The translations under genes and the position numbers were made by a program. Positions 1,260 to 56,841 of a DNA stretch of 64,000 nt are shown here, piece after piece. The stretch is taken from the NCBI GenBank assembly GCA_964636675.1, contig CAZWUO010000001.1, forward strand, positions 639-64,638, in the 5' to 3' direction. The notes beneath the pieces are model-generated. The model did not search any database and was not told where the DNA came from. It saw nothing but the letters and a program-made list of their open reading frames with translations. Position 1 is the stretch's first letter. Each line of letters starts with the position of its first letter. The stretch comes from an uncultured Ectothiorhodospiraceae bacterium. Lineage in GTDB: Bacteria; Pseudomonadota; Gammaproteobacteria; S012-40.

Positions 1260-3947
1260 TTGTACGAAGCACATTTTGGATTAACCGCATCTCCTTTTCG
1301 GCTTAGCCCGGATCCTAGCTTCTTTTTTGGAAGCAAGGGGCACAAGCGTGCGCTTGCGTATTTACGGTATGGTTTGACTCAAAAAGAAGGCTTTATTGTG
1401 GTTACTGGTTCACCCGGAACGGGTAAGACCACACTTGCACGCGCTTTACTTGAAGAGCTATCTAAAAATAAGGTCATTGTTTCGGAACTAAATACCACGC
1501 ATCTTGAGGCAGATGATGTATTACGCATGGTGGCCGCATCTTTTGGTTTAGAGCATGAAAATCTCGCAAAAGCTTCGTTGCTTAATAGACTGGAACGCTT
1601 TTTTCTGACGAAGTATAGAGCTGGATATCATTGTTTGTTGATGGTTGATGAGTCGCAAAACCTTCCGTTTGGTTCATTAGAAGAACTTAGAATGCTGTCT
1701 AATTTTTATGCGGGAAAACATGCCTTATTGCAAATTTTTCTATTAGGTCAGCAACAGTTTCGAGATGCGTTGTATGATCCTAAGTTAGAGCAATTGCGTC
1801 AACGTGTTGTTGCTGCAACTCATCTTGATCCATTAAACGCGAAAGAAACACGTGCATATATACTGCATCGTTTAAATCATGTTGGATGGAAGCAAAACCC
1901 TAATTTTACCCAAAGAGCTTTTGCTTATATTTATACTTTGACCACAGGGATTCCAAGACGCATAAATACGTTTTGTGATCGTTTGATGTTGTTTGCATCC
2001 TTAGAAGAAATTACTGAAATAAATGATACCCATGTTAAAGCAGTTGCCAAGGAGTTGATGTACGAGGTTACTTCCAATAAATCCGATATAACGACTGAGA
2101 CCGCTTCTGATCCGTCACAAACTTCTCTTGAGTTGACGACTATGGAAGAACTTACTCCGTCAGAAATAATTAATATTGAAGAAGAATTTAGACAGGAAGA
2201 AGAGCTTCAGGCGTCAGAAATATCGCAAACCGAAATTGTGCAAAACGCACCGTTATTAGTGCCAGAAGAAGAGAACATCGAAAAACTTGCTGCACAAGAA
2301 AAAACTGCTTTTGAGGCTCAAGCATCTTTTTCCAGGAATGAAGTTCTTTCTGATAAAAATGAGAGCAACGATATTGCGCATGATGATAGTTCATCGAAAG
2401 TTAAAAATAAAAAACGCAAAGGCCAAAATAAATCATATGCTAGCGTGAAAAAAACGCTATACAGTAAATCCAGAAATAATACTCAAACATCACCTAGAAA
2501 GAATGTTGAACACAAACCTCAGTATTTAAATCAGCAACCAGGGCTAGGATTAGTTGCTCTTGCCGTAGAGTATTATCATCAACCTGATGAACATAAAGAA
2601 TTATTGTGTTCCTCTTCGATATTGCCACCTGGCATTGACGAGCTTTTCAGGGTGGCGATGGGAAAATTACATATTGATTTAGATGCGTTTGAAGGTTTAT
2701 CAGATATGAGCCAAGCAGATCTAAAGGAGGCTGCACGGCGTTTTATCAAGGAAATATTATTATCCAATGCATCTGATTATTATCGACGATTAGGTTTAAC
2801 TAAGACTGCTAGCCAAGAACAAATTAAAGCGCACTACCAAATATTATTCAAACTTTTTCAGCCGGATCAAGAAAAAGATGCTGGACAATGGAATGAATCT
2901 TTCACTATAAAAATAAACCAAGCTTATGTTTCTTTACGTGAAAAAAATAAACGAGATGCCTATGATTATTTTCTTGATTCTTTAGAAATTGTTGAGCTTG
3001 ACCAAGAAGTTGAAGTTGATCAAGGATCCGTATCTGTTTCAGATATTTCGGATAAGCTTCCATTAAAGCTTGAAGCAGGGGATGCGAATAAAACTTTCTT
3101 ATCTGTCGTTAAGAATAATATGTACATGATCATTGCGACTGTGATTTTTATGATTATCGGGGTTGTAAGTGTGGTGTTAGCTCCTTCGCTGTTTGATTTA
3201 CAACCAAATCAGTTTGTGGATAAGCAACGCGACGGATCTTTAATGAACGCTCCCACGGAAAATATTCCTCTTTCCCCGACTGATGAGCATGATATCAATC
3301 GGATAGATACTGTCCTAAATAGTGACCTCGAATTTGGAGAACCAAAGGTATTTGATGGGTCGGCAGGTTCGAATTCACCGATTACAAATTTCATTAATGA
3401 AAATATTAATTCTACGACGCTGAATAAATCCGCGCAAGAAAAACCCCCAGGGTTTAAGATTCGCAATAATATTCTTTCTCAACAAACCACGACTCTGTCG
3501 ACAGAAAAACTCGGATCCTTAAAAACGAACGAACAAGTTAAAAAACTCGAGACAGTGAAGCAAAACACCGTTAAAGTTATACCGAAAAAAGAGCTTGATG
3601 CCATGATGAGCCTGTTTTATCAGTCTTATAAAGAAGGTGATTTAAAAGAATTTATTCGTTTGTTTTATAAAAGCGCGATCACGAATGATCGCAAGAACAG
3701 AGTTGGGATTGCCAAAGATTATTCTCGACTTTTTAGTTCTACTGATAAACGCAGTATTAACATCGAAAATCTCGAATGGAATACGGTGGGTAATAAAGCA
3801 GTAGGAATTGGAGACTTTATCGTTAGGACAGTTAAGACTGGGGACACCGAAACAAAGAGTTTTGAAGGCACAATTAGACTCGTTGTGCTTAAAGAAAGAG
3901 GCAAAATAAGATTTAAAGAAATGTACCATGCTTACAGTGAAGATTGA
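1260..3947 (+). CDS. ExeA/GspA-like AAA ATPase with a central J-like domain, one TM segment and a C-terminal periplasmic domain (EPS/exosortase-locus-associated ATPase type)
   Basis: TTG start after aggtgag SD. Walker A GSPGTGKTT and Walker B LLMVDESQN. J-domain-like stretch DYYRRLGLTKTASQEQIKAHYQILFKLFQPDQ...KRDAYDYF with HPD replaced by QPD. TM MYMIIATVIFMIIGVVSVVLAP. Confidence 0.65.
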   Translation: MYEAHFGLTASPFRLSPDPSFFFGSKGHKRALAYLRYGLTQKEGFIVVTGSPGTGKTTLARALLEELSKNKVIVSELNTTHLEADDVLRMVAASFGLEHENLAKASLLNRLERFFLTKYRAGYHCLLMVDESQNLPFGSLEELRMLSNFYAGKHALLQIFLLGQQQFRDALYDPKLEQLRQRVVAATHLDPLNAKETRAYILHRLNHVGWKQNPNFTQRAFAYIYTLTTGIPRRINTFCDRLMLFASLEEITEINDTHVKAVAKELMYEVTSNKSDITTETASDPSQTSLELTTMEELTPSEIINIEEEFRQEEELQASEISQTEIVQNAPLLVPEEENIEKLAAQEKTAFEAQASFSRNEVLSDKNESNDIAHDDSSSKVKNKKRKGQNKSYASVKKTLYSKSRNNTQTSPRKNVEHKPQYLNQQPGLGLVALAVEYYHQPDEHKELLCSSSILPPGIDELFRVAMGKLHIDLDAFEGLSDMSQADLKEAARRFIKEILLSNASDYYRRLGLTKTASQEQIKAHYQILFKLFQPDQEKDAGQWNESFTIKINQAYVSLREKNKRDAYDYFLDSLEIVELDQEVEVDQGSVSVSDISDKLPLKLEAGDANKTFLSVVKNNMYMIIATVIFMIIGVVSVVLAPSLFDLQPNQFVDKQRDGSLMNAPTENIPLSPTDEHDINRIDTVLNSDLEFGEPKVFDGSAGSNSPITNFINENINSTTLNKSAQEKPPGFKIRNNILSQQTTTLSTEKLGSLKTNEQVKKLETVKQNTVKVIPKKELDAMMSLFYQSYKEGDLKEFIRLFYKSAITNDRKNRVGIAKDYSRLFSSTDKRSINIENLEWNTVGNKAVGIGDFIVRTVKTGDTETKSFEGTIRLVVLKERGKIRFKEMYHAYSED

Positions 3948-7413: not shown

Positions 7414-7456
7414 CCTAGATTCCGCAGTTGACCACGATGCGGCATCGTTAAGCCGC
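7414..7456. repeat. Truncated copy (left terminal inverted repeat plus about 20 bp) of the MITE-like repeat family also present at 15420, 24510 and 35501
   Basis: cctagattccgcagttgacc...ggcatcgttaagccgc matches the 5' end of the 15420..15647 copy. It overlaps the spoVR stop codon. Confidence 0.6.
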
Positions 7457-8953
7457 AATCTCTTTTTTCTGTTCATGGGTTAATTCAACGGCGTTATCCT
7501 CGGTAACGGTCTCTAGGCGTACCGTAAACCCCCATAGTCGCGTGAGATGTTTTATTACCTGATCGACAGTTGCAGCAAGTGGTTTACGGTTGTATTGTTG
7601 GTGGCGTAAGGTCAATGCGCGATCGCCACGCATGTCTACATTATACACCTGAATATTAGGTTCTTGGCTTCCTAGATTATATTGATCCGCAAGTAATGTG
7701 CGAATTTGTTGATAGCCTTCATCATTATGAATTGCAGATATTTCGATATTGCGATTTTTGTCATTGTCTAGAACAGCGAACAGTTTTAAGTCGCGTATCA
7801 CTTTAGGTGACAAATATTGTGAAATAAAGCTTTCATCTTTAAAATTTCTCATGGCAAAGTCCAAAGTATCGATCCAGTCTGTGTTTACTAAATCAGGAAA
7901 CCATTTTGTATCTTCCTCGGTAGGGTGTTCGCAGATTCGCCTGATATCACTCATTATCGAAAATCCAAGCGAGTAGGGGTTTATTCCACTATAGTGGGGT
8001 GAGTCGAAATCGGGTTGGTAAGTTACATTACTATGTGACTTGAGGAATTCAATCATAAAACCATCAGTGACGAGATTTTCATCATAGAGTTGATTTAAAA
8101 TCGTATAGTGCCAAAATGTTGCCCAACCTTCATTCATCACTTTAGTTTGTTTTTGTGGATAAAAGTATTGGGATATTTTTCTGACTATGCGTACGATTTC
8201 TCTTTGCCAAGGTTCTAGTAGAGGGGCATTTTTTTCGATAAAGTAGAGTATGTTTTCCTGAGGTTCTTCTGGGAAACGATCAACTATTTTTTCTTTTTTC
8301 TCATTTTCTCGTCTAGGCAACGTGCTCCATAGCTCATTAACCTGAGACTGCATATAAACTTCTCGTTCTTTGAGCCTTGCTTGTTCTTCTTTCATGGACA
8401 CAGGGTGGGGCCGTTTATATCGATCAACTCCGTAGTTCATTAGCGCATGACAGGAATCCAATATTTCTTCGACTGCAACTTCGCCATATTTTTCTTCGCA
8501 GTCAGTCACAAAGTCCTTGGCAAATACGAGATAATCAATAATCGCATCTGCGGAAGTCCATTGTTTAAATAAATAGTTGTTTTTAAAAAATGAATTATGT
8601 CCATAAGCTGCATGTGCAAGCACAAGTGCTTGCGTCATCATCGAGTTTTCTTCCATTAAATAGGATATACATGGATTCGAGTTTATAACAATTTCGTAGG
8701 CTAAGCCCATTTCTCCGCGACGATACTTTTTCTCCGTGTCCATAAATTGCTTACCGAAAGACCAGTGGCTATAACCCACCGGCATTCCAACTGAGGAATA
8801 CGCATCCATCATCTGTTCTGCGGTTATAACTTCTATTTGGTTTGGATAGGTATCGAGCTTGAATTTCCGAGCAATCCTCGATATTTCTTGGTCATATCGC
8901 TCAATCAACTCGAAGGTCCACTCAGATGTTTCAGATATTGGCTTGTGTGTCAT
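7448..8953 (-). CDS. spoVR: SpoVR/YcgB-family protein
   Basis: 501 aa. Conserved gene order prkA-yeaH-spoVR on the same strand. Typical SpoVR-family length and motifs. Confidence 0.85.
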   Translation of the reverse strand: MTHKPISETSEWTFELIERYDQEISRIARKFKLDTYPNQIEVITAEQMMDAYSSVGMPVGYSHWSFGKQFMDTEKKYRRGEMGLAYEIVINSNPCISYLMEENSMMTQALVLAHAAYGHNSFFKNNYLFKQWTSADAIIDYLVFAKDFVTDCEEKYGEVAVEEILDSCHALMNYGVDRYKRPHPVSMKEEQARLKEREVYMQSQVNELWSTLPRRENEKKEKIVDRFPEEPQENILYFIEKNAPLLEPWQREIVRIVRKISQYFYPQKQTKVMNEGWATFWHYTILNQLYDENLVTDGFMIEFLKSHSNVTYQPDFDSPHYSGINPYSLGFSIMSDIRRICEHPTEEDTKWFPDLVNTDWIDTLDFAMRNFKDESFISQYLSPKVIRDLKLFAVLDNDKNRNIEISAIHNDEGYQQIRTLLADQYNLGSQEPNIQVYNVDMRGDRALTLRHQQYNRKPLAATVDQVIKHLTRLWGFTVRLETVTEDNAVELTHEQKKEIAA

Positions 8954-8961
8954 ATAACGTT

Positions 8962-10272
8962 CTACGTTTCATTGTTTTTGCTAAAGAGTTCCCGAAAAAC
9001 AGGATAAATGTCTGCGACATCGTGTAACTGCTGCATCGCAAAATTTGGATAAGTCGATACTATTTTTTCATACTCATACCACAGGCTTTGGTGGTTTTGC
9101 GGGGTTATTTCTACGTATGCAAAATATTGTACTAATGGCATAATGTCCTCTTCCAAGAGCTTTTTGCACAACGGGGAGTCATCATGCCAATTATCACCAT
9201 CTGATGCTTGGGCAGCATAAATATTCCATTCCTCTTCCGAGTATCGTTCTTGTGCGATTTTTTTCATTAAGTGTAATGCGCTCGATACAACTGTTCCACC
9301 TGTTTCGCGAGAATAAAAAAAGTCTTCTTCGGATACTTCTTTGGCGATAGTATGGTGTGATATGAAGACGAGTTCAATTTTTTCATAATTACGATTTAGA
9401 AATAGATAGAGAAGAATAAAGAATTTTTTAGCCATATCCTTCTTTTTTTGATCCATAGACCCCGATATATCCATGAGACAAAACATGACTGCCTGGGTTG
9501 TTGGTTTTTGGATGTCGACCCTATTGTTATACCGTAAATCAAAAGTGTCGATAAAGGGAATCGCATCTCGTTTCCTCTTTAGACCTTCAATTTTTTTTCT
9601 TAATTGAATGACCGGTAAATCGTCTTCGGAAGACGATTCTAATAGCAATTCTAGCTCTTTTTCTGTTTCGATTATTTTTTTTCTATAGGGATTGCGCAGT
9701 GCAATTCTGCGAGCTTGGGCACTACGCATTGAACGCAGAATATTAATGTTTGTAGGTACACCTGATGTAGTGAATCCCGCTCTGGATTTGCTTTTTTCAT
9801 ATATCGTGGAAAGTTTTGTTTTAACCAAGTTTGGAAGTTCAAGATCCTCAAAGAAAAACTCCATGAACTCTTCTTTACTGAGTTCAAAGACAAAGTCATC
9901 AGCACCCTCACCTTGATTCGACGGCTTATTTCCTTGTCCATTTCCTTTGCCACCTCTTGGTCTCGGTATTTTATCGCCGGGTACAAAATCATGATTTCCA
10001 GGATGGATAATATCTCGTTGGCCGCCTTGGCCATGATATATAGTCGGTTCAGAAATGTCTTTTGCAGGAATTGAGATTTTTTCACCACTGTCTACGTCAG
10101 TGATGCTTCGATTTGCAATGGCGTCAGTGACCGCCTTCTTAATTTGGTTTTTATAGCGCCGAATAAAACGTTGACGATTTACTGCACTTTTGTTTTTCCC
10201 ATTAAGACGACGATCAACAAGTCTGTACACAGTGTCAACCTTTATGAAGACTTGCGTACGCGTAAATACCAA
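8962..10272 (-). CDS. yeaH: YeaH/DUF444 family protein (vWA-like)
   Basis: 436 aa. Gly-rich basic segment RPRGGKGNGQGNKP typical of YeaH. Sits between prkA and spoVR. Its start overlaps the prkA 3' end. Confidence 0.85.
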   Translation of the reverse strand: MVFTRTQVFIKVDTVYRLVDRRLNGKNKSAVNRQRFIRRYKNQIKKAVTDAIANRSITDVDSGEKISIPAKDISEPTIYHGQGGQRDIIHPGNHDFVPGDKIPRPRGGKGNGQGNKPSNQGEGADDFVFELSKEEFMEFFFEDLELPNLVKTKLSTIYEKSKSRAGFTTSGVPTNINILRSMRSAQARRIALRNPYRKKIIETEKELELLLESSSEDDLPVIQLRKKIEGLKRKRDAIPFIDTFDLRYNNRVDIQKPTTQAVMFCLMDISGSMDQKKKDMAKKFFILLYLFLNRNYEKIELVFISHHTIAKEVSEEDFFYSRETGGTVVSSALHLMKKIAQERYSEEEWNIYAAQASDGDNWHDDSPLCKKLLEEDIMPLVQYFAYVEITPQNHQSLWYEYEKIVSTYPNFAMQQLHDVADIYPVFRELFSKNNET

Positions 10273-12164
10273 TCACAAAGTAAACGTACTTGTTTCGAGG
10301 TGTAGCCTTTGTCTGACATACGTTGCAAGAAGTCATCGTGCTTTTTCTTATCATCAGAGGAAGATTTTGTATTAAATGAGATAACGGGTAAAAGTTCTTC
10401 CGTATTAGAGAACATTTTTTTCTCTATGACATTTCTGAGTTTTTCATAGCTTGTCCAGCTAGGGTTTTTTCCTTTGTTTGCGGCTTTTGCTCGCAGAACA
10501 AAGTTTACGATCTCATTCCTAAAATCTTTAGGATTGCTGATTCCTGCTGGTTTTTCTATTTTTTCCAATTCTTCATTTAGTGCGGATCGACTAAATATTT
10601 CCCCGGTATCTGGGTCACGATAGTCTTCGTCTTGAATCCAATAGTCTGCATAGGTGACATAGCGGTCAAATATATTTTGACCATACTCTGAATAACTTTC
10701 TAGATACGCGGTTTGTATTTCTTTCCCAATAAATCCCACATATTCCCTAGCGAGATATCCTTTGATAAATGACAAATAACGCTCTTCAATTTCAGAAGAG
10801 AATTGTTCTTGTTCTATCTGCTGTTCCAATACATAGAGAAGATGAACCGGATTTGCTGCTATCTCCGAGTTATCATAATTAAACACTCGTGATAGTATTT
10901 TAAACGCGAAGCGAGTCGATAAACCTGTCATTCCTTCATCAACACCGGCAAAATCTGTATATTCTTGATAAGATTTTGCATGGGGGTCAGTATCTTTTAA
11001 ATTTTCTCCATCATAGACTCGCATCTTTGAATAAATATTCGAGTTTTCGGGCTCTTTCAGGCGAGATAATATGGCAAATTGAGCCATCATTTTGAGTGTA
11101 TCGGGCGCGCATGGGGCTTGAGAAAGCGAGCTTTCGCGCAAAAGTTTATTGTAAATTTTGATTTCGTCGGCTACCCGTAAACAGTAAGGGACTTTCACAA
11201 TATAAATTCGATCAAGAAATGCTTCATTATTTTTATTGTTTCTAAATGTTTGCCATTCGGATTCATTGGAGTGAGCAAGGACTATTCCATCGAATGGTAT
11301 AGCACCTAATCCTTCAGTGCCTTTATAGTTACTCTCTTGAGTTGCGGTTAACAGAGGATGTAACACTTTAATCGGTGCTTTAAACATCTCGACAAATTCT
11401 AATAGACCTTGGTTAGCTAAGCATAGTCCTCCTGAATAGCTATAAGCATCAGGATCATCCTGTGCATATTCTTCTAGTTTTCGGATATCTACTTTACCTA
11501 CTAAGCTAGAAATATCTTGGTTGTTTTCATCGCCAGGTTCGGTTTTGGCAATTCCCGATTGCAAAAGTATTGATGGCTTGAGCTTAACAATTTTAAATTT
11601 GGTAATATCGCCATTAAATTCTTGCAACCTTTTTACAGCCCAGGGTGACATCATTCCATTTAGATAGCGACGTGGTATGCCATAATCCTCTTCAAGAATT
11701 TCGGCATCCTCTTCTACGGAAAAAAGTCCCAGAGGAGATTCATTGACGGGGGATCCTTTGATGGCATAGAACGGTGTTACTTCCATCAGTGATTTCAGCT
11801 TTTCTGCTAACGAAGATTTTCCACCACCAACAGGGCCTAACAAATATAGAATTTGTTTTTTCTCTTCTAAGCCTTGTGCCGAGTGTTTGAAATAAGAAAC
11901 TATTTTTTCCACCGCGTCTTCCATGCCGTAAAAATCTTTGAATGCCGGATAAATTTTTATCATGCGATTGGAAAATAATCGGCTCAGCCGTGGATCTGTT
12001 CTTGTATCAATAATTTCTGGTTCGCCAATAGCAGCTAACATTCTTTCCGCTGCGGTAGCATATGCAGAGGAATCAGACTTGCAAAGCGTAAGATACTCCT
12101 GAATGGAATATTCTTCTTCTTTGGCTGCATCAAAACGTGTTTGATAATGATTGAATATGCTCAT
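10242..12164 (-). CDS. prkA: PrkA-family serine protein kinase (AAA-type)
   Basis: 640 aa. Walker A GPVGGGKSS. Strong end-to-end resemblance to E. coli YeaG/PrkA. Confidence 0.9.
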   Translation of the reverse strand: MSIFNHYQTRFDAAKEEEYSIQEYLTLCKSDSSAYATAAERMLAAIGEPEIIDTRTDPRLSRLFSNRMIKIYPAFKDFYGMEDAVEKIVSYFKHSAQGLEEKKQILYLLGPVGGGKSSLAEKLKSLMEVTPFYAIKGSPVNESPLGLFSVEEDAEILEEDYGIPRRYLNGMMSPWAVKRLQEFNGDITKFKIVKLKPSILLQSGIAKTEPGDENNQDISSLVGKVDIRKLEEYAQDDPDAYSYSGGLCLANQGLLEFVEMFKAPIKVLHPLLTATQESNYKGTEGLGAIPFDGIVLAHSNESEWQTFRNNKNNEAFLDRIYIVKVPYCLRVADEIKIYNKLLRESSLSQAPCAPDTLKMMAQFAILSRLKEPENSNIYSKMRVYDGENLKDTDPHAKSYQEYTDFAGVDEGMTGLSTRFAFKILSRVFNYDNSEIAANPVHLLYVLEQQIEQEQFSSEIEERYLSFIKGYLAREYVGFIGKEIQTAYLESYSEYGQNIFDRYVTYADYWIQDEDYRDPDTGEIFSRSALNEELEKIEKPAGISNPKDFRNEIVNFVLRAKAANKGKNPSWTSYEKLRNVIEKKMFSNTEELLPVISFNTKSSSDDKKKHDDFLQRMSDKGYTSKQVRLLCDWYLRVRKSS

Positions 12165-12777
12165 CAGATTTGCCTCCTAATGAGTGTTTGTACTTACTCA
12201 AATGCGGCAAACATTTACCGCCAATTCTGTGGTTAATGCAGTTAAGTGCATGAAAAAAAACTAAAAACCACTCAATGATATTCTAATTTAGCGAGCAAGA
12301 TATAAGCCAAGAGAATAAAATCGTGCTGTAGGCTCTATATCGTCGATTATATTAGTTGATAAACCAATACTGGTTAGGTACTTGGAGTCATAATACGCAA
12401 AAAAATGCGAAAATTTGTTGACTCTAGTTACGCATTTCGTGCTTGGGTTAGACAATTTAATGACGCTCTCAAGCATTTTGCAAAGGGAATTGGGCTGAAG
12501 TTTTTATGTGCCAAATCTTTCAAAGATAGGTGTTGTTTTTTACGCAAAAACAGGCCTTTTAGGGAGAAAAAAAATTAATACGTATCATTAAAAAAAAGTA
12601 TTTGTATCTTTTTTATGGACTATTATTGTAGTAAGTACGCCAATCGAAAATGCAAGCAGGACAAATGGATACTAAGATAAAAGGAGTGTTATATACACAT
12701 TAAATTTTCGTGGTGTTCTTGGGGTAAAATCTAATCTCAGGATTCGTTAAGAGTTATAATTATAGAGGAGATCATTT

Positions 12778-13308
12778 GTGAAGCTTCCGTTACAAATAAC
12801 AACGCGAAAACTTTCCTTACCGAAAAACGCTGCAGACATGATTAAGCAAAAAGCGAACAAACTAGAGACTTTTTATGACAAAATCATTGGGTGTCGCGTT
12901 ATGGTTGAGACACCACACAAGCACCAAAATCAGGGAGTATTATATAATGTTAGAATTGTAATTAGTGTCCCTGGATCAGAACTCATCGTGAAAAGAGAGC
13001 CTAACCAAGGTATCTATATTGCTATTCGTGATGCCTTTGATGCTGCAAGACGACAAATTCAAAATTTTGCGCGTAAACGTAGAGGAGAAATAAAGACCCA
13101 TCACGTCATTCCAACCGCTACAATCACTGAAATCTTTCCTTATATGGGATATGGCTTTATGACGACTGATGACGGTCGACAAATCTATTTTCATACCAAT
13201 AGTTTGATCAATCAGGATATTGCAGAAGTGGAAATAGGAGCTTCGGTGCGATTTGCCGAAAAGCAAGGCATGGATGGCCCTCAAGCGAGCACCGTTGCGT
13301 TGATCTAA
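12778..13308 (+). CDS. hpf: Ribosome hibernation factor (HPF/RaiA) N-domain fused to a C-terminal cold-shock-like (CSD) domain
   Basis: GTG start after agaggag SD. N-terminal 110 aa match the HPF/YfiA pattern (LQITTRKL...A..KLETFYDKI....V...PH). C-terminal 65 aa match CspA-like motifs (GYGFMTTDDGRQIYFH...VEIGASVRF...GPQAS). Confidence 0.7.
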   Translation: MKLPLQITTRKLSLPKNAADMIKQKANKLETFYDKIIGCRVMVETPHKHQNQGVLYNVRIVISVPGSELIVKREPNQGIYIAIRDAFDAARRQIQNFARKRRGEIKTHHVIPTATITEIFPYMGYGFMTTDDGRQIYFHTNSLINQDIAEVEIGASVRFAEKQGMDGPQASTVALI

Positions 13309-13382
13309 TAAATACAGAGATACCCTATAGCTAATAACGGTGTTTGTACGATCTCGGAGCTGTGAGTATTGGGAAGTATCTA

Positions 13383-13422
13383 AAAGCCTTTTCATTCTAT
13401 GGAATGAAAGGGCTTTTTCTTT
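13383..13422 (+). terminator. Rho-independent terminator downstream of hpf
   Basis: aaagccttttcattc-tatg-gaatgaaagggcttt followed by a T-run. Confidence 0.5.
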
Positions 13423-13549
13423 GTTAATCAATTATATAAGGTGTTAAGTGAAAGAATAAACTAAAGGTTCGTCGGTTTTATGTCGAAATGCTTGTGTACA
13501 TAGATTATGCACTCAACCCATTTACGAGAATAATACGGCGGTTCTTCCA

Positions 13550-14284
13550 ATGCCCTCAAAACCTTATAAGCAATTAAAAGATGGTGAGATTTCCAATGAT
13601 TTTGTCAAAAATTATGCGCCTTTAGTTAAGCGTATCGCGTATCATTTGATGGCTCGATTGCCCGCGTCGGTTATTGTCGATGATTTAATTCAGGCTGGTA
13701 TGGTCGGTTTGCTTGAAGCGTCACGGAATTACAAGGCAGAATTAGGCGCTAGTTTCGAGACCTATGCGGGGATTCGCATTCGCGGGTCAATGTTAGATGA
13801 ATTAAGACGAAATGACTGGGCTCCTAAGTCAGTCCATCGAAAAACGCGAGAATTAGCACAGGTTGTGCGTAAAATCGAAGGAGAAACGGGTAGAGATGCG
13901 CGTGATGATGAAGTCGCTAAAGCACTTAATATTACCTTGGGCGAATACTATAAGATACTGCAAGATGCGAGTACTGCGAGAATGTTCGGTTTTGAAGATT
14001 TAGGGGTCAATGAAGATACGCTTGACGCGGGAATACGGGATGGTGCGCGGAGTACGCCTCTCGATAAGATTCAAGACGAACGTTTTAAGAAAAAGCTCAA
14101 AGAAGCAATATCTGGCTTACCCGAGCGGGAGAAAATGGTGGTTACACTTTATTATGACTCTGAGCTAAATCTTAGGGAAATCGGTTCAGTATTAGGTGTG
14201 AGTGAATCGCGAATTAGTCAACTACTAAGCCAAGCGATGATACGGTTACGCGCACGCATGAAAGAATGGGTGATAGATTCTTAG
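13550..14284 (+). CDS. fliA: Flagellar sigma factor sigma-28 (FliA/RpoF)
   Basis: Sigma-70 region 2 (DLIQAGMVGLLEA), region 3 and a region-4 HTH (LNLREIGSVLGVSESRISQLLSQA). 244 aa. Confidence 0.85.
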   Translation: MPSKPYKQLKDGEISNDFVKNYAPLVKRIAYHLMARLPASVIVDDLIQAGMVGLLEASRNYKAELGASFETYAGIRIRGSMLDELRRNDWAPKSVHRKTRELAQVVRKIEGETGRDARDDEVAKALNITLGEYYKILQDASTARMFGFEDLGVNEDTLDAGIRDGARSTPLDKIQDERFKKKLKEAISGLPEREKMVVTLYYDSELNLREIGSVLGVSESRISQLLSQAMIRLRARMKEWVIDS

Positions 14285-14318: not shown

Positions 14319-14762
14319 ATGTTATTGAAACCCCATTTAAAGAATTGCCAAAAGCTTTATGAGCAAAATTATCGAAATTTACTGGCGATAATGCCTGAGT
14401 TAGTCATTATAGAAATGCAAAAAAATAACTATGGGCTTCCTGCTTACGGCTTAAAAGTCCACATACGCGAGCGTACAAGATATACAACGTTGCTAAGCTT
14501 TGATATTAATCAGAATATTGAAAGTCCTTTTATAAAGGCTTCTGTGTTTCAAGTGCGGATGTATCACGATGCTAGAGTAGCGGAAGTGGTTTCTTATCAA
14601 GGTCATCGTTGTCAACAGGCTCACTACGCATATCCCAACCAAAATATGTACCACAAAGACGAAAAAAAACAATTAAACTTATTACTTTCCGAAGTAATCG
14701 AGCTTTGTCATGATAATGGCTTGAACGCGATTCCAAATATTCATTCCTTCGAAATAAATTAG
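14319..14762 (+). CDS. Hypothetical protein (147 aa) downstream of fliA
   Basis: ORF with reasonable codon usage and no recognisable motif. Possibly co-transcribed with fliA. Confidence 0.5.
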   Translation: MLLKPHLKNCQKLYEQNYRNLLAIMPELVIIEMQKNNYGLPAYGLKVHIRERTRYTTLLSFDINQNIESPFIKASVFQVRMYHDARVAEVVSYQGHRCQQAHYAYPNQNMYHKDEKKQLNLLLSEVIELCHDNGLNAIPNIHSFEIN

Positions 14763-14989: not shown

Positions 14990-15089
14990 TTTTTTCTTTT
15001 ATTCTTGGTTAATTTAATTTGAGTCCAGACGATTAAAACATTAGTTCGGTATGTAAATACATTTAACGCTAATAACACAGGTGATAATA

Positions 15090-15299
15090 ATGGCTAGAAC
15101 CATTGAAAATGCTCAGTATGCGGGTGCGGGTAAGAGAAAACTTGAAAATATGAATGACTCCGTCCGTATGGATGATGCGTATAAAGAGCCTAAATCCATA
15201 CAGATCGATGATGAATGGGACACCAACATGGAAGAGTATTTTGATGAAATCGAAGATTTTCAAGATATCGATTTTCCAAGACTAGACAACGATTATTAA
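15090..15299 (+). CDS. Small, highly acidic hypothetical protein (about 69 aa)
   Basis: ATG 5 nt after the acaggtga SD. C-terminal half is very acidic (EEYFDEIEDFQDIDF). The ORF track gives a GTG-extended version from 15081. Confidence 0.4.
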   Translation: MARTIENAQYAGAGKRKLENMNDSVRMDDAYKEPKSIQIDDEWDTNMEEYFDEIEDFQDIDFPRLDNDY

Positions 15300-36043: not shown

Positions 36044-37750
36044 ATGAAAGTATTAGTGGTCGATGATGATGCAACGAATAGGCTCGTCTTAAAGGGCTTA
36101 CTCGAAAAAGAAGATCATGATGTTATGCTGGCAGTAAACGGTGTTGAGGCTATTCAACAGTATGAAAATGGCAGTCCAGACCTGATTTTAATGGATGTTA
36201 TGATGCCAGAAATGGATGGCTACGAGGCGACCAGAGAAATCAAAAAGAGGTGTGGTAGCCGATTTGTTCCGATAATATTTTTAACCGCAGTTAGTGGTAA
36301 TGAAGCGTTAGTAACCTGTCTCGAATATGGTGGTGACGATTATATCGGGAAACCTTTCAACCGAACCGTATTAAGCGCAAAAATTGAAGCAATGAACCGC
36401 ATTGTTTCTCTTTATTATCAAATCCAAAACCAAAAAGAAGAGCTTGAAACCCATAAGCGTCATGTTCAGCGCGAAACTGAAGTAGCAGAGAAAATATTTA
36501 ATGGTATTCTTGAGCGCAGTGATTTAAATGTAGACTTTATCAATACCTTAAGACGTTCAGCCGAAGCATTTAATGGTGATATCGTGCTTGCCACGCGTAA
36601 TCCAAACGGGGGGATGAATATATTAGTGGGTGATTTTACAGGTCATGGTTTAGCCGCTGCTATTGGAGCAATGCCTGTCGCTGATGTGTTTTATGGAATG
36701 TCCAAAAAAGGCTTTGAGCTTGAAGACATTGTATCGGAAATAAATAAAAAATTACGTGTTGTCTTACCCATGGGGAGATTTTTGGCGGCGTGTATTATTC
36801 ATGTGGATACACGTTGCGAATACCTAAAAATATGGAACGGAGGAATGCCAGACGTTCTTATTTACCGACCGAGTGCGAAACAAGTAGTAGAATACTTGCC
36901 TTCTGAGCACGTTCCGTTGGGAATCTCTTCTCCTGTTCAGTTTGAAACGCAAGCCACCCGGGTGAAAATCAGCCCTGGCGACTATTTATATATTTATTCT
37001 GACGGTGTCGTTGAAACCACAAACGAACACGATGAGTTATTTGGAATGGATAGATTGGTTGAAGTTATTACTACGTTTGATGGCAACGAGGTTATCAGTG
37101 AATTAGAGGCATCTTTAAGTCGGTTCTCTAATACGCTTCCGCAAGCTGATGATATTACTTTAATGGAGTTTCATTGTAATCCAACTCATTTATTGCAACT
37201 CGATAATGAGATATCAGTTGGTAAAACATATGCAACCAGTTGGAGTATGTCGTTTATTTTTGAAACAGATACCTTACAGCGATTAGATCCAGTCACTTTT
37301 TTAATGAAAACCTTGAGCGAAATACAAGGCCTGCGAAGTCACAGTCAAAGTTTGTTTATGATCATTTCAGAGTTGTTTAGCAATGCGCTTGAGCATGGTG
37401 TGCTTGGCTTAGATTCGAAGTTAAAGACGACGCCTGAGGGATTTGCGCAATATTATTTTTTACGAGAAACTTTATTAAAAAAGATGAAATATGCTTATAT
37501 AAAGTTCAGTTTTTCACAGAAAATCATCGGTAGAGGAGGTGAAATAACCATCGGGGTTGAGGACTCAGGAGATGGGTTTGACTATGCTTCGTTAGGTGGG
37601 GAGAAACAATCAATGCCGCCTGAAAGTGTTAAATCGGGACGCGGACAGGTGCTTATTGCTGATTTGTGTGAGACTATTACCTATAAAGGAAAAGGAAATG
37701 TGGTTGAAGCCGTTTATTCTTGGAATGATACCCCCCTTATCGCGCATTAA
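36044..37750 (+). CDS. Three-domain partner-switching regulator: REC receiver + PP2C (SpoIIE/RsbU-like) phosphatase + RsbW-like GHKL serine kinase (HsbR-like)
   Basis: REC (MKVLVVDDD...DLILMDVMMPEMDG). PP2C block (GDFTGHGLAAAIGAMPV...YIYSDGVVE). GHKL N-box ELFSNALEHG, G1 DSGDGFD, G2 GRGQVLIA. Confidence 0.8.
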   Translation: MKVLVVDDDATNRLVLKGLLEKEDHDVMLAVNGVEAIQQYENGSPDLILMDVMMPEMDGYEATREIKKRCGSRFVPIIFLTAVSGNEALVTCLEYGGDDYIGKPFNRTVLSAKIEAMNRIVSLYYQIQNQKEELETHKRHVQRETEVAEKIFNGILERSDLNVDFINTLRRSAEAFNGDIVLATRNPNGGMNILVGDFTGHGLAAAIGAMPVADVFYGMSKKGFELEDIVSEINKKLRVVLPMGRFLAACIIHVDTRCEYLKIWNGGMPDVLIYRPSAKQVVEYLPSEHVPLGISSPVQFETQATRVKISPGDYLYIYSDGVVETTNEHDELFGMDRLVEVITTFDGNEVISELEASLSRFSNTLPQADDITLMEFHCNPTHLLQLDNEISVGKTYATSWSMSFIFETDTLQRLDPVTFLMKTLSEIQGLRSHSQSLFMIISELFSNALEHGVLGLDSKLKTTPEGFAQYYFLRETLLKKMKYAYIKFSFSQKIIGRGGEITIGVEDSGDGFDYASLGGEKQSMPPESVKSGRGQVLIADLCETITYKGKGNVVEAVYSWNDTPLIAH

Positions 37751-37904
37751 AAGAAAATCAACAGGCGCTAACAAATAGATAATAATGATAATTCTGTGTA
37801 AGCTAGCATCATGACTCCTGGATTCATTTATCACCAATGTATTTTACTGGAGAATATCAACATATCATGCTGAATTAGTTACATAATAATAAGGGGGGTG
37901 ATCT

Positions 37905-38588
37905 TTGATCGTTGTTATAGCAGATGATCATGCCATTGTCAGGGAAGGTGTTATTTATTCTTTAAAGACTCATTTTGGCGAAGAGACACAGGTTTTAGAA
38001 GCAGAAGACTCTCCGAGTTTAGTCGCATTACTTGAGCAAAATAAAAATATCGATCTCATCTTACTGGATCTCATGATGCCAGGTGCAAACGGGCTTTCCG
38101 TGTTAAGAAAAATATGTAATGAATGGCCTGGAAACTCCGTAGTGGTGTTGTCCGCATCAGAAGACTCTACGCTGATGCGTAAATCAATTGATATAGGCGC
38201 CGCAGGCTTTATTCCAAAATCATCACCTCGAGAGGTCATGATGAGTGCTATTAGGTTAGTGCTTGCTGGAGGAGTATATATACCGCCTAAAAGTTTATTG
38301 TCCATAGAAGCAGTCTCAACTTCCTCCGAAGCAACGGAAAATAATAAGTTACCTGATCCAAAAATACTCGCTCCCAAGCTAACCGATAGACAACGACAGG
38401 TATTGATTGGTATCGCTGAAGGCAAAACGAATAGAGAGATCGGAGCAGGGCTAGAACTGTCAGAATATACCATCAAGATTCATGTAACGGCTATATTCAA
38501 AAAACTGCAGGTGAACAATCGCATGCAATCTGTGTTAGTTGCTAAAGAGTTAGGCTTATTCAAGGTGGGTGACCTCACGCCAGACTAA
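37905..38588 (+). CDS. NarL/FixJ-family response regulator (REC + LuxR-type HTH)
   Basis: TTG start after aaggggggtga. REC (DLILLDLMMPGANG). C-terminal LuxR HTH (LTDRQRQVLIGIAEGKTNREIGAGLELSEYTIKIHVTAIFKKL). Confidence 0.8.
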   Translation: MIVVIADDHAIVREGVIYSLKTHFGEETQVLEAEDSPSLVALLEQNKNIDLILLDLMMPGANGLSVLRKICNEWPGNSVVVLSASEDSTLMRKSIDIGAAGFIPKSSPREVMMSAIRLVLAGGVYIPPKSLLSIEAVSTSSEATENNKLPDPKILAPKLTDRQRQVLIGIAEGKTNREIGAGLELSEYTIKIHVTAIFKKLQVNNRMQSVLVAKELGLFKVGDLTPD

Positions 38589-38784
38589 GTGTTTTATTCA
38601 TTTATCGCGTAATGCCCTGAATATTTTTATATCTAAAGATCGCCTAACGGTACCAATCTTAGATTGCCCATTATCTCACCTTCCATTCGGCCCAGAATTA
38701 CTTAGTATTACCAGGGAGCAAAATCCTTCTGACACCGAATAAATGCGCACTCTGCATGCTGTTCAACTGTGGGTTCTAGGATAA

Positions 38785-39537
38785 TTGACGATTATGCAAA
38801 AAAGAAGTAGTGAATCTTCAAAGTACATCGCTTTGGTTGCTGAAGATCATAAATATAATATGATATTGATGGCGAGCTTGTTAGAGAAAAAGAGTGTTAC
38901 TGTTATTCAGGCACGCAATGGTAAGGCCGCCGTTGAGCAATATTTGGCAAATAAAGTGGATATTATATTTATGGATATACACATGCCAGTCATGGACGGC
39001 ATTGAAGCGATTAAAAAGATTCGGACCTTAGAAAAGGGGCAAAATCACGTGCCTATTGTAGTGCTTACGGCCGATGTTTTTATTCGGGAAAATACAGGCT
39101 TAGACACTACTCTAATTGATGAAATTTTACTAAAGCCTATCGTTAGCCAAGATTTATGGAGAGCTTTCGAAAAATTAGCCATCAAAAATTCTCTATCTGA
39201 AAAATCTTGTGAGGCTAAATCGATGCCACAAGCGAAAAGTCCTCAAACAGTCATTTCCAAACATTCTCATAAATTACCCGATGTGCTTAAAGAAAAATTT
39301 ATTAAAGAAGTACACTTATTATATGGGTTAGTTGAGGAGCAATATCGTCTAGGTAATTCAGATAAATTGCAAGAATTACTGCATAAGTTAGCGGGTATGA
39401 GCGGATGTTTTGACGCGACAGAAATGACCGGCATTTGCAATGAGTTGTTGTCCGCGATTAAGAACGAAGATTTAGTGGCAATTGATTTGGCTTTTCAAAA
39501 GTTAACCCAGTATAACGCTGAGTTACCTACCCATTAA
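38785..39537 (+). CDS. REC receiver fused to a C-terminal Hpt phosphotransfer domain (HptB-like function)
   Basis: REC (DIIFMDIHMPVMDG) and a C-terminal Hpt-like helix with LHKLAGMSGCFDA (the HxxKG motif). Confidence 0.75.
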   Translation: MTIMQKRSSESSKYIALVAEDHKYNMILMASLLEKKSVTVIQARNGKAAVEQYLANKVDIIFMDIHMPVMDGIEAIKKIRTLEKGQNHVPIVVLTADVFIRENTGLDTTLIDEILLKPIVSQDLWRAFEKLAIKNSLSEKSCEAKSMPQAKSPQTVISKHSHKLPDVLKEKFIKEVHLLYGLVEEQYRLGNSDKLQELLHKLAGMSGCFDATEMTGICNELLSAIKNEDLVAIDLAFQKLTQYNAELPTH

Positions 39538-39751
39538 GGAATGGGCACGAAATATAGAGATTTAGCCGAATGAATAAGTCTGACCATAAATCATGATACA
39601 TCAGTGATTAAGATCTGGTAAGATCCTATACTTTGAAATCTGTAGTTTAGCGTTAATTCTGGTTTTAGATGAACAACTGAATGCTTATTATACTATATCA
39701 ATAAGCAAACACGCTGGGCTGGGATAGTTCATCAGATAAGAAATAGTTCTT

Positions 39752-42700
39752 TTGGTTATCGCGGATACGGGATGTTTTGTGATTGCGCCTAATGAGATTA
39801 TTGATAAAAACCTTCCAAGGAATGAACTGCTTAGTCGGTTGAGCAGGTTGCACACTAAGTCCGTTGCTTGGGTGAGTGGCCCACCCGGTGCGGGGAAAAC
39901 AAATCTTGTTGCAACTTATGTGAAAAGGCAAACATCTGTCATTATATGGTACGAGGTAGAGGTTGGAGACGAGGACCCCGCGACATTTTTCCATTATTTA
40001 TCAGAGAATATAAAGAAAAAATGTGGCTTAGCTGAGAACTGGATTAACCCTTTAAAACCGGAATACCTATTATCTATTGATGTTTACGCAAGGCAGTTTT
40101 TTCAATTGTTGTGTCAGAATATCGATGAATCTTTTACGTTGGTTTTTGACCAATATCAGGAATTACCCAATAAATCCATTATTCATGATCTCATCAAGCA
40201 CTTCATTCGTGCCATACCTAGCCACAGTTCGATTATTTTTATTAGCCGATCTGACCCACCGGCAGCACTCGCACGTTTTGTTATCAATCAAGAAATTGAA
40301 TGTATAGGTTGGAATGATCTACGTTTTTCGGAAAATGAAATTGATGCGCTGGGACATTTGTGGGGATTCTGTCATGATGAAATGCAACTATTAGAAGAAG
40401 CAAAGTCGCAGATAAACGGGTGGGTAGCTGGTGCAGTAATCATTTGCGATTTTATTCGCAACGTTAAAAAAACGCCAGCCATAAAAGATTTATCTAACTC
40501 GGACATTTTGTTGAATTATTTTTCCGGTGAAATATTAAATAAACTCAGCGAGATCGAAAAGAATTTTTTATTTCAAATATCTTTCTTGCCGCGTTTTTCT
40601 GTTGCAGCAGCAATAGAGCTTACAGGAATCGATGACGCGCTACATATTATTGAGCAGTTACACAGTAATCATTCTTTTACTGAGAAGTTAGGTTATTCAT
40701 CAAATGAATATCAGCTACACCCTTTATTCAGAAGGTTTTTACGCTCGCGCATAAAGGATGAGTTATCTAAATCAGATATTTTAAATATTAAACACAGAGC
40801 GGCTTCTTGTTTAGAAAAACAAGGACTCGTCGAGCATGCCATCACACTTTGGTATGAAACCGAGCAATGGGACATGCTTGCGCGGATTGCAGAAAGCTAT
40901 ACCGACACACTGATTGAGCAAGGTCGCGGTAGTACGGTTGCAAAGTGGTTTCAACAAATACCGCCTGCTGTTGTCGATAAATACCCTTGTTTTGCTTATT
41001 GGAGAGCAAGGGCAATTATGCCTTATGACACCAAAGAGGCGCTAAGACTATACCGGTTTGCCTACGAAAAATATGTGCTTTTAGATACTGATGTTAATAA
41101 AAAATGGTTATGTTGGGCAGGATGTGTCGCTACCTATATACACGACTGGAAATCATTTGATGATCTGGATTATTGGATTAGTGAATTACCTTTTTTGCCT
41201 TGTAGCTTCCCACCAGCTTGTAGTATCGAAACCAAAGCCAGTGTTACTTCTGCTATGTTTATTGCGTTATTATTTAGGCAACCCGATCACTCACACTTTA
41301 TTTTGTGGGAAGAGGCCAGCCTAGCATTAGTAAAGAGTGAGTTGAATATCAATCAAAAAATCACGACTGGAAATTGCTTGGTTCTTTATTATTCTTGGAT
41401 TGCCGATTTCCCCAAGTGTCAAGTCATTATGGAAACCATGCGCGAGAATATTTCTCAGCCAGACGTATTGCCGCTTACTCGAATTATTTGGCATTCTATG
41501 GAGGCGATGTATGCTTGGCTGGGCTTGAAACCGCAGCGATGTGAAGAGATTGTTTCCAAGGGCTTAGCATTGGCGAATGATTATGGAATTAAGATTTGGG
41601 ATTTTATGCTCAACGCCCAAGGGGCTTACGGAAAACTTTCTTCTGGACAATTAGCGGGTGCTACCAAATATTTGAAAAATATGTCACGATCCGTTAGTGG
41701 GGGAAGGTCTCTTGATGCATCTCAGTATTACTATTTGAGTGCATGGGTTGCGGTATTAAAAAAGGATTACCCCCAGGCTTTAGAAAAAATTAAATTTGCG
41801 AGTGATTTGACCAAGGACGCGGGATCTCCATTTCCTACTACTTTTGTAGACATTGCTCTGTCGCAGGTGTTGTTTGAGCAAGGCGAAAAATCACGTGCGC
41901 GCGTGATTATTAAACATGTGAACAGCATAGCAGATTCGTTGCGTAGTCGGCATTTTAAACATCATAGTCTTTTAGTGTTGGCTTATTTTGATTTAATGGA
42001 TGGGAGTTACGAGCAAGGAATTAATTATCTAGAGCAAGGATTCAGATTCGCCCGTGAAAATCATTTTTTGAGTCTTATATGGTGGCGTCCTGAGCTTATG
42101 TCTAAGCTTTGCGGAATTGCTTTGTTGCATAATATCGAAGCGGAGTACGTCAAAGAGTTAATTATAAAAAATGAATTAACTCCCGATGAAAAATATCTTG
42201 GACTAGAGCAATGGCCTTGGCAAGTAAAAATCACTTCATTCAATCATTTTACTTTATTCAAAAATGACATACTTTTTGGGTCTTCCGGAAAATCTCAAGT
42301 AAAACCTTTAGATTTATTAAAGGTGTTACTGGCTTATGGAGGCAAAAGCGTTAGTGTCACAAAAATCACAGACTGTTTGTGGCCTGATGCAGACGGTGAT
42401 ATGGGGCAGCACTCATTTAGTACTACGTTATATAGGTTACGCAAACTATTAGGCTGTGAAAATTCCTTACTTCTCAATAATGCGCAATTGAGTTTAAATC
42501 CTATATTTTGCTGGACAGATGTCTGGGCAATTGAAATGCTTGAGAAAAAAATAGAGCAGAAACTACTGGAAGCTACATTCGATCCAAGCACAGCAGCGTG
42601 TTTAGAGATCGAGCTATTTAATTTGTATCAGGGTGCATTTTTAAGTCTGGAAAGTGAAAAACCTTGGTTTTTTATAAAGCGCGAAAAAGAAAGAAATCGT

Positions 42701-42967
42701 TTTATTCGGATCGCAGAACATATAGGGAAATATTGGCTCGATAATTCGCAGATAGATAATGCGATTCGTTTTTATCAAAAAGCGATCGAAATCGATTACT
42801 TGGTGGAATCGTTTTACCAACAGCTTATCCTTGCTTATCAACGTGCCGGACGAAAAGCCGAGGCTAATTCAGTTTATAAACAATGTGAGCAAGCATTAAG
42901 TGACTTTGACGACATAAGGCCGAGCGAGAAGACCAAGAAAATTTTTCGTGACTGTATGAGTTCTTAA
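39752..42967 (+). CDS. Large STAND-type regulator: N-terminal NTPase (MalT/NB-ARC-like), central helical/TPR region, C-terminal OmpR-type winged helix plus BTAD-like domain
   Basis: Walker A GPPGAGKTN and Walker B LVFDQYQE. C-terminal wHTH-like block LLKVLLAYGGKSVSVTKITDCLWPD...TTLYRLRKLLG followed by TPR-like helices (IRFYQKAIEIDYLVESFYQQLILAYQRAGRKAEA). TTG start. Confidence 0.7.
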   Translation: MVIADTGCFVIAPNEIIDKNLPRNELLSRLSRLHTKSVAWVSGPPGAGKTNLVATYVKRQTSVIIWYEVEVGDEDPATFFHYLSENIKKKCGLAENWINPLKPEYLLSIDVYARQFFQLLCQNIDESFTLVFDQYQELPNKSIIHDLIKHFIRAIPSHSSIIFISRSDPPAALARFVINQEIECIGWNDLRFSENEIDALGHLWGFCHDEMQLLEEAKSQINGWVAGAVIICDFIRNVKKTPAIKDLSNSDILLNYFSGEILNKLSEIEKNFLFQISFLPRFSVAAAIELTGIDDALHIIEQLHSNHSFTEKLGYSSNEYQLHPLFRRFLRSRIKDELSKSDILNIKHRAASCLEKQGLVEHAITLWYETEQWDMLARIAESYTDTLIEQGRGSTVAKWFQQIPPAVVDKYPCFAYWRARAIMPYDTKEALRLYRFAYEKYVLLDTDVNKKWLCWAGCVATYIHDWKSFDDLDYWISELPFLPCSFPPACSIETKASVTSAMFIALLFRQPDHSHFILWEEASLALVKSELNINQKITTGNCLVLYYSWIADFPKCQVIMETMRENISQPDVLPLTRIIWHSMEAMYAWLGLKPQRCEEIVSKGLALANDYGIKIWDFMLNAQGAYGKLSSGQLAGATKYLKNMSRSVSGGRSLDASQYYYLSAWVAVLKKDYPQALEKIKFASDLTKDAGSPFPTTFVDIALSQVLFEQGEKSRARVIIKHVNSIADSLRSRHFKHHSLLVLAYFDLMDGSYEQGINYLEQGFRFARENHFLSLIWWRPELMSKLCGIALLHNIEAEYVKELIIKNELTPDEKYLGLEQWPWQVKITSFNHFTLFKNDILFGSSGKSQVKPLDLLKVLLAYGGKSVSVTKITDCLWPDADGDMGQHSFSTTLYRLRKLLGCENSLLLNNAQLSLNPIFCWTDVWAIEMLEKKIEQKLLEATFDPSTAACLEIELFNLYQGAFLSLESEKPWFFIKREKERNRFIRIAEHIGKYWLDNSQIDNAIRFYQKAIEIDYLVESFYQQLILAYQRAGRKAEANSVYKQCEQALSDFDDIRPSEKTKKIFRDCMSS

Positions 42968-56189: not shown

Positions 56190-56841
56190 TATTTCGTAAG
56201 TAAACTGGAACCGCTTTCTCGGGAGGATAAATTTTTCCATCGATTAAATCTTGGTATGCTAAGTATGCAATATTCTCAGCCGAAGGTAAAGAATCCGTTT
56301 CGAATTCCACCATACTAGTAATGACTTGCTCTGCAAAGCAAGTCCGGTATGTGGTCCATGCATCACCTACTGCATACCACTTGACATCGGTTGACGTTGT
56401 TAGTGCCTTAGGTTGGCAAAGTCCTTCCGCAGCATTGACCAGCGTGCCCTTATCAAATTTGAACGCTCCCCAATAGACTTCTTGCATTTTTGCATCCATA
56501 ACAACGAGAATATTTTTTTGTTTATTTTCAATATGTGTTTTATGCGCCAAGGCAGCGAGCGATGATATTGGAATAATAGGTAGGTTTGCGGAAAATGCAA
56601 TCCCCTGGGTCACACCGGCGGCAATTCTAAGACCGGTAAATGATCCTGGCCCGCGTCCAAAGGCAATGCCATCGAGTTGCGAGGGCAATAATTTTTGTTC
56701 TGTTAACAGCTGATCACACATCGTTAAAATGAGATCGGAATGACCTCTAGGTGTGAGTTCATAAAGTGTTTTTACTTTGTCCTTTATCATCAGAGATGCC
56801 GAGCAAGCAGCCGAGGATGTATCTAAAGCGAGTAAATTCAT
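56155..56841 (-). CDS. tsaB: tRNA threonylcarbamoyladenosine biosynthesis protein TsaB (YeaZ)
   Basis: MNLLALDTSS N-terminus and an ASKHA fold without metal-binding His, typical of TsaB. 4-nt overlap with the upstream helicase gene. Confidence 0.85.
   Translation of the reverse strand: MNLLALDTSSAACSASLMIKDKVKTLYELTPRGHSDLILTMCDQLLTEQKLLPSQLDGIAFGRGPGSFTGLRIAAGVTQGIAFSANLPIIPISSLAALAHKTHIENKQKNILVVMDAKMQEVYWGAFKFDKGTLVNAAEGLCQPKALTTSTDVKWYAVGDAWTTYRTCFAEQVITSMVEFETDSLPSAENIAYLAYQDLIDGKIYPPEKAVPVYLRNNVAKKTAKTPS

Follow-up and report, generated by a model that had tools for sequence, protein, structure and literature searches.

The 64,000-nt stretch of DNA analysed here (the window), from an uncultured Ectothiorhodospiraceae bacterium, encodes at positions 12778 to 13308 a protein that very probably (at about 0.85) is orthologous to HPFcold, a ribosome hibernation factor of two domains, and that would act as in the complex from Coxiella burnetii. 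The family to which it belongs has been described before, with structures solved, and the protein is an unremarkable member of it whose architecture is not new. The initial annotation had regarded the fusion of a hibernation factor domain to a cold-shock domain (CSD) as an uncommon architecture that would be a new way of coupling hibernation to RNA binding. The claim to novelty does not stand, since the fusion has been published both as HPFcold and in a pan-genome survey, and in the solved structure the CSD already lies on the 3' end of 16S rRNA. The window adds one environmental HPFcold orthologue, whose lineage has no close reference genome, and leaves the understanding of hibernation unchanged. 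Its modest additions are that the RNA-stacking residues are invariant across the HPFcold family, that the polar contacts made by Coxiella R123, K155 and R177 are not general to the family, and that one gammaproteobacterial clade shows linkage of the gene with prkA-yeaH-spoVR and fliA.

HPFcold was named for CBU_0020 of C. burnetii (Stuart et al., bioRxiv 10.1101/2025.11.08.686982; Nat Commun 2026;17:7049, PMC13392368), of which cryo-EM structures are available (PDB 9T0Z and 9TZE), and the family is defined by the presence of PF02482 and PF00313 at gathering thresholds. In the Coxiella complex, seen on the 70S monomer, the N-domain occupies and blocks the 30S decoding centre. Six linker residues further on, the CSD wraps and shields the anti-Shine-Dalgarno (anti-SD) 3' end of 16S rRNA, with bS21 and uS7 acting as the clamp (PMC13392368). 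F132 stacks on C1535 and Y142 on U1534 of 16S rRNA, R123 pairs with C1535, K155 of 'KLEVG' contacts h40, and R177 bridges the G924-925/C1530 backbone (PMC13392368). CBU_0020 also carries a beta2-beta3 loop insertion that short HPF lacks (PMC13392368), and expression of cbu0020 rises 10.5-fold as Coxiella turns into its dormant small-cell variant (SCV) (PMC4766238). It is already published that bacteria can protect the vulnerable 16S 3' end on idle 70S ribosomes without forming 100S dimers. Chimeric HPF-Csp isoforms were independently listed in the pan-genome survey of Chan et al. (bioRxiv 10.1101/2025.11.04.686544), where they are scattered, variable in genomic location, coexistent with canonical HPF and often adjacent to non-canonical factors such as Balon.

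Gene model and domain architecture

The coding sequence (12778..13308, + strand, including the stop codon) starts with GTG, ends with TAA and encodes 176 aa in the ORF list, in exact agreement with the coordinates first assigned to it. A Shine-Dalgarno sequence, AGAGGAG (12764..12770, + strand), was read off 7 nt 5' of the GTG. The start call is sound, because the N-terminus MKLPLQIT is conserved across the family and both the GTG and a GGAG are kept in the upstream alignment with relatives of 64-65% protein identity. An intrinsic terminator (13382..13427, + strand) was located by the terminator scan, consisting of a 16-bp hairpin (13382-13417) that begins 74 nt past the stop codon and is followed by a T-rich tail. 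Its folding energy is -20.3 kcal/mol (z = -4.8), and none of 200 shuffled sequences was as stable, confirming that the gene has its own terminator, as had been proposed. With the terminator right after it, the gene looks like a stand-alone transcription unit. An antisense ORF (12976-13431) that overlaps the conserved HPFcold coding sequence and the terminator was treated as a shadow ORF.

The N-terminal HPF/RaiA (S30AE) domain (12778..13089, + strand; residues 1-104) was delimited by PF02482, the AlphaFold2 model and Foldseek. PF02482 (Ribosomal_S30AE) matches residues 5-102 (E = 2e-12, 48.1 bits against a cut-off of 23.7), and the model, built from an input alignment of 36 sequences, displays a beta-alpha-beta-beta-beta-alpha order over residues 5-104. 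In Foldseek against the PDB, this domain matches RaiA/HPF/pY structures, including 8rd8_D, 4hei_A, 2rql and 6h4n_x, at TMt values of 0.84-0.89. The loop between beta2 and beta3 (PHKHQNQGVLYN) is extended: in the phmmer search of the PDB the short HPF 9sda_9 has a 6-residue gap opposite residues 51-56 in this loop, and the PF02482 match spans 98 residues against an 88-position profile, so that the beta2-beta3 insertion described for CBU_0020 is present. The domain is followed by the linker IKTHHVIP (13090..13113, + strand; residues 105-112, 8 residues), which is the least conserved segment of the HPFcold family and has pLDDT values below 50 at residues 105-109.

The C-terminal domain (13114..13305, + strand; residues 113-176) is a CSD according to both PF00313 (residues 123-174, E = 1.5e-8, 34.8 bits against a cut-off of 27) and Foldseek, in which it matches CspA, CspB, CspC, CspE, Bc-Csp and YB-1 at TMt values of 0.82-0.86 and rmsd values of 1.7-1.9 A. 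It is modelled by AlphaFold2 as a five-stranded OB-type barrel (residues 113-175), and the mean pLDDT of the whole model is 85.6, with two folded domains and a low-confidence linker. Y125, F127, Y137, F138 and H139 form its aromatic platform. Alignment with CspA and CspB showed that RNP1 changes from KGFGFI to MGYGFM and RNP2 from VFVHF to IYFHT, and that four of the canonical CSD aromatic/His positions are kept and three lost; the description of the RNP motifs as partly degenerate is accordingly accurate. The NCBIfam models agree at the superfamily level, with every specific HPF, RaiA and Csp model scoring below its own cut-off (TIGR00741 yfiA, 32.6 bits against 40.9; the best Csp model, CspE, 27.3 bits against 120). 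The profile search and structure prediction that had been suggested as checks thus gave both domains above their gathering cut-offs and a confident two-domain model, bearing out the proposed HPF/YfiA fold of the N-terminal half and the assignment of the C-terminal part as a CSD and not a long-HPF dimerisation domain.

Orthology with Coxiella HPFcold and the alternatives

In the PDB, the protein has a full-length match (residues 1-173, E = 1.5e-40, phmmer) to 9t0z_9, also contained in 9tze, a 183-aa 'Ribosome hibernation promoting factor'. With CBU_0020 it shares 40% identity and 61% positives over 173 residues with 0 gaps (BLASTP), and because the alignment is gapless, the linker is equal in length to that of Coxiella HPFcold. 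Coxiella residue numbers equal those of the window protein plus 5, and the counterparts of F127 and Y137 in Coxiella are F132 and Y142. Among 120 relatives, F127, Y137 and F138 are each present in 120 and H139 in 118, and position 125 is Y or F in 119. The protein departs from the at least 90% family consensus at six positions only, mostly conservatively, and at the invariant columns H47, H139 and P168 it has the consensus residue where Coxiella deviates (K, N and A, respectively). In the 120 close relatives, conservation is no higher in the CSD than in the N-domain (mean majority fractions of 0.70 and 0.76, respectively), opposite to the higher CSD conservation reported for the wider HPFcold set (PMC13392368).

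Three of the polar Coxiella contact residues are replaced, R123 by E118, K155 by E150 (KLEVG becoming EVEIG) and R177 by T172. In the 120 relatives, column 118 holds mainly K (53), A (21), R (15), Q (9), S (6) and E (5), column 150 mainly R (34), H (26), Q (17), K (13), E (9) and D (9), and column 172 mainly T (77), V (15), S (13) and A (11), so that E118 and E150 are minority states (5/120 and 9/120). Since all three columns vary family-wide, the Coxiella residues appear to be lineage-specific traits of Coxiella/Legionella and not family-defining ones. It is conceivable, though unlikely, that the acidic E118 and E150 reflect a CSD-ribosome interface modified relative to that of Coxiella.

By homology with the Coxiella burnetii complex across 40% identity, we infer ribosome binding, anti-SD binding and 70S hibernation in the window organism. 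The protein would accumulate under starvation or in stationary phase, as suggested by the induction of cbu0020 in the SCV and by the neighbouring prkA-yeaH-spoVR genes. Its N-domain would occupy the A-site and the mRNA path in the 30S decoding centre, and the short linker would bring the CSD to the side of the 30S platform where mRNA exits. There, the CSD would bind the single-stranded anti-SD tail through its aromatic platform, both blocking initiation and shielding the tail from RNases. The predicted outcome is a protected, idle 70S monomer; as the protein lacks the dimerisation domain of long HPF, a 100S dimer is not expected. The Coxiella structure indicates that the expected partner of the CSD is the ribosome's own 16S 3' end, not mRNA or another free RNA. 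The 16S 3' end, bS21 and uS7 are all absent from the 64-kb window, in which Rfam detected no RNA family and ARAGORN no tRNA.

The strongest competitor, itself improbable, keeps the HPF domain on the 30S subunit and has the CSD capture or chaperone mRNA or other single-stranded RNA in the manner of CspA instead of binding the anti-SD. It is favoured by the generic single-stranded-RNA-binding aromatic platform of the CSD and by the reversal of charge at two Coxiella contacts (E118 and E150). In addition, no other Csp gene was found in the 64 kb covered, where tblastn searches with E. coli CspA, RMF and HPF as queries matched only the CSD of this gene and showed no other HPF or RMF gene. Against it, the family shows no variation at the residues stacking on U1534 and C1535, and its conservation is reported to cluster on the anti-SD-contacting surface (PMC13392368); the altered contact positions vary family-wide and are therefore unlikely to define specificity; and a linker of the same length as in Coxiella would constrain the reach of the CSD once the N-domain is docked.

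That the protein is a degenerate long HPF promoting 100S dimers through a diverged dimerisation domain is far less probable still. Its total length of 176 aa is near that of long HPFs, and long HPF is a frequent mis-annotation of HPF-Csp proteins (Chan et al., bioRxiv 10.1101/2025.11.04.686544). Pfam, however, detected no family other than PF02482 and PF00313 at E <= 10, and hence no long-HPF C-terminal domain; the C-domain is a CSD by both sequence and fold; Foldseek superposes the long HPFs 5myj_A and 5ngm_Av with rmsd values no better than 25-29 A; and the Coxiella homologue was observed on 70S monomers (PMC13392368). The Pfam and Foldseek results rule out a long-HPF C-domain, which the initial annotation had named as one finding that would overturn its reading.

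The other such finding, that a frameshift or mis-assembly had joined a short hpf to a csp, has almost no probability, and nothing was found in its favour. An identical 176-aa protein is encoded on contigs of four independent assemblies from four samples (GCA_006243105.1, GCA_006243245.1, SRR32234002 and SRR6439372), so that the sequence of this HPFcold copy is already in public assemblies. Full-length homologues number in the hundreds, and a structure of the fused Coxiella protein has been solved. A word-indexed protein search gave 420 matches, of which the best 120 are all 175-210 aa long and contain both Pfam domains, and phmmer, run exhaustively against 1.84 billion representatives at 50% identity, found 142 matches of essentially full length with E <= 1e-30. 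Length and architecture are the same in relatives at 95%, 84% and 64% and down to ~35% identity, and the linker region aligns without gaps. As to phylogenetic distribution, a further check that had been proposed, at least 511 loci encoding HPFcold relatives were found among 185,579 species-representative genomes, their hosts being Gammaproteobacteria, Nitrospirota, Thermodesulfovibrionia, Desulfobacterota/'Deltaproteobacteria', Binatia and others. The HPF-CSD fusion is sparse yet widespread. The best match among the species representatives is only 65% identical, the lineage of the window having no close representative there.

A reading of the CSD as a retron Se72-type toxic effector domain within a defence system, prompted by the best CSD-type NCBIfam match (NF038236, retron_eff_Se72, E = 5.4e-7), is effectively ruled out, since its 29.4 bits lie far under the cut-off of 82 and reflect generic CSD similarity only, and since neither a reverse transcriptase nor an msr/msd RNA lies nearby (Rfam being empty and the neighbours being prkA and fliA).

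Gene neighbourhood and the rest of the window

The gene lies, as first described, between the prkA-yeaH-spoVR module and fliA, which was confirmed by Pfam and NF005413. The module (7448..12164) comprises spoVR (7448-8953), yeaH/DUF444 (8962-10272) and prkA (10242-12164), all on the - strand and identified by Pfam at E values of ~1e-178 to 1e-182, and prkA is divergent from HPFcold across a 613-bp intergenic region (12165-12777) that presumably holds both divergent promoters. Beyond the terminator, fliA (13550-14284, + strand; NF005413, 308.8 bits against a cut-off of 201) is followed by a DUF1249 gene (14319-14762, + strand; PF06853) and, further downstream, by a small acidic ORF, a LysR regulator and leuCDB-asd. 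That ORF (15081-15299, + strand) encodes 72 very acidic residues without a Pfam match and is probably real, as a 67-69-aa gene lies at the same place 3' of DUF1249 in the independent contigs L081, L082 and L085.

The order of prkA on the - strand, an intergenic region of ~540-600 bp, HPFcold and fliA recurs only in three loci, L001, L082 and L085. L085 comes from the 95% relative, and the order is likewise kept in relatives of 64-65% identity; in L001 (CAYUAI010000001.1, a MAG labelled Chromatiales and the nearest of the species representatives), HPFcold is 65%, FliA 76% and PrkA 85% identical to those of the window. This order is not found in the other 79 of the 80 reference loci (L001-L080), and clustering of the flanking ORFs in these 80 loci showed no neighbour family in more than 11, indicating that the HPFcold family has no fixed neighbourhood. 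The prkA/fliA linkage is thus real but local to one gammaproteobacterial clade. Among the 80 loci, 7 have a RelA/SpoT-like gene immediately upstream in the same orientation, 8 have a convergent RpoD-like sigma factor gene just downstream, and 4 have an Hsp20 gene nearby.

As the arrangement is kept in relatives from 95% to ~64% protein identity, HPFcold may have become fixed in this gammaproteobacterial lineage within a starvation/differentiation island, co-regulated with the PrkA module and the motility sigma factor, although we consider this unlikely. If true, hibernation would share one control region with the PrkA starvation module and FliA. A sigma-70-type scan of the upstream region gave no usefully placed site and fewer sites than in shuffled sequences, and no convincing sigma-54 or sigma-28 motif was seen by eye upstream of HPFcold. 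Rfam at gathering thresholds gave nothing in the whole window, and hence no known 5' leader RNA. Alignment of the sequences upstream of the gene in four relatives showed no conserved non-coding block other than the Shine-Dalgarno sequence and start codon, and none that extends beyond the 95% relative.

The remaining content of the window (GC content 37-44%) is ordinary chromosomal, including XrtA/PEP-CTERM genes, FimV, HtpG, response regulators, NirB, a molybdopterin oxidoreductase, TatD, Lgt, ThyA and DHFR. An 895-aa protein (1260-3947, + strand) looks like an unusual fusion, with an XrtA/PEP-CTERM-associated ATPase in the first 268 residues (TIGR03015, 350.7 bits against a cut-off of 324.5) and, at about residues 505-574, a stretch resembling the DnaJ J-domain (E ~1e-11, far under the DnaJ cut-offs). 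In a signalling cluster (36044-42967, + strand), a receiver-SpoIIE/PP2C phosphatase fusion is followed by a LuxR-type response regulator, a third protein with a receiver and a protein of 1071 aa carrying a BTAD domain at its C-terminus. A 427-aa pentapeptide-repeat protein (54954-56240, - strand; PF00805/PF13599) is encoded beside a DinG-like helicase (56838-58757).

Comparison with known systems

Short HPF works with RMF to form 100S ribosomes, and RaiA uses its C-terminal tail. With these proteins of E. coli and its relatives (YfiA, pY), the window protein has the N-domain fold in common and, by inference, the decoding-centre site, but they are single-domain proteins of ~95-113 aa without the CSD or the beta2-beta3 insertion, whereas the protein here has 176 aa and two domains. 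Long HPFs of Staphylococcus, Bacillus, Lactococcus and Thermus are alike in having an HPF N-domain, a linker and a second domain of ~60 aa, and they share the purpose of shielding the 30S platform and the 3' end of 16S rRNA in dormancy. The C-domain of long HPF, in contrast, homodimerises to form 100S ribosomes, while that of the window protein is an OB-fold CSD without a sequence or fold match to it.

The CSD shares the five-stranded fold of CspA, CspB and CspE (rmsd 1.7-1.9 A) and keeps the RNP1/RNP2 cores as GYGF and YFH. It differs from stand-alone Csp proteins, whose CSD is ~70 aa, in being fused to HPF and in being only 25-29% identical to CspA/CspB, with CspA W11, K16 and F34 replaced by I119, M123 and T140. 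The partner of a stand-alone Csp is free mRNA, whereas that of the HPFcold CSD would, by analogy, be rRNA on the ribosome. The chimeras of Chan et al. are alike in combining an HPF N-domain lacking the dimerisation domain with a Csp-type domain, and in their scattered phylogeny and variable location, with which our neighbour analysis agrees; those chimeras are often beside Balon-like factors, and nothing of the kind is evident beside the gene here.

With Coxiella HPFcold, the protein has in common the order of PF02482 and PF00313, the overall length, the linker length, the beta2-beta3 insertion, the anti-SD-stacking aromatics and the absence of a dimerisation domain, although 60% of the residues differ. 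Coxiella is an obligate intracellular pathogen, whereas the host here is a gammaproteobacterium of free-living type that has genes for flagella and PEP-CTERM.
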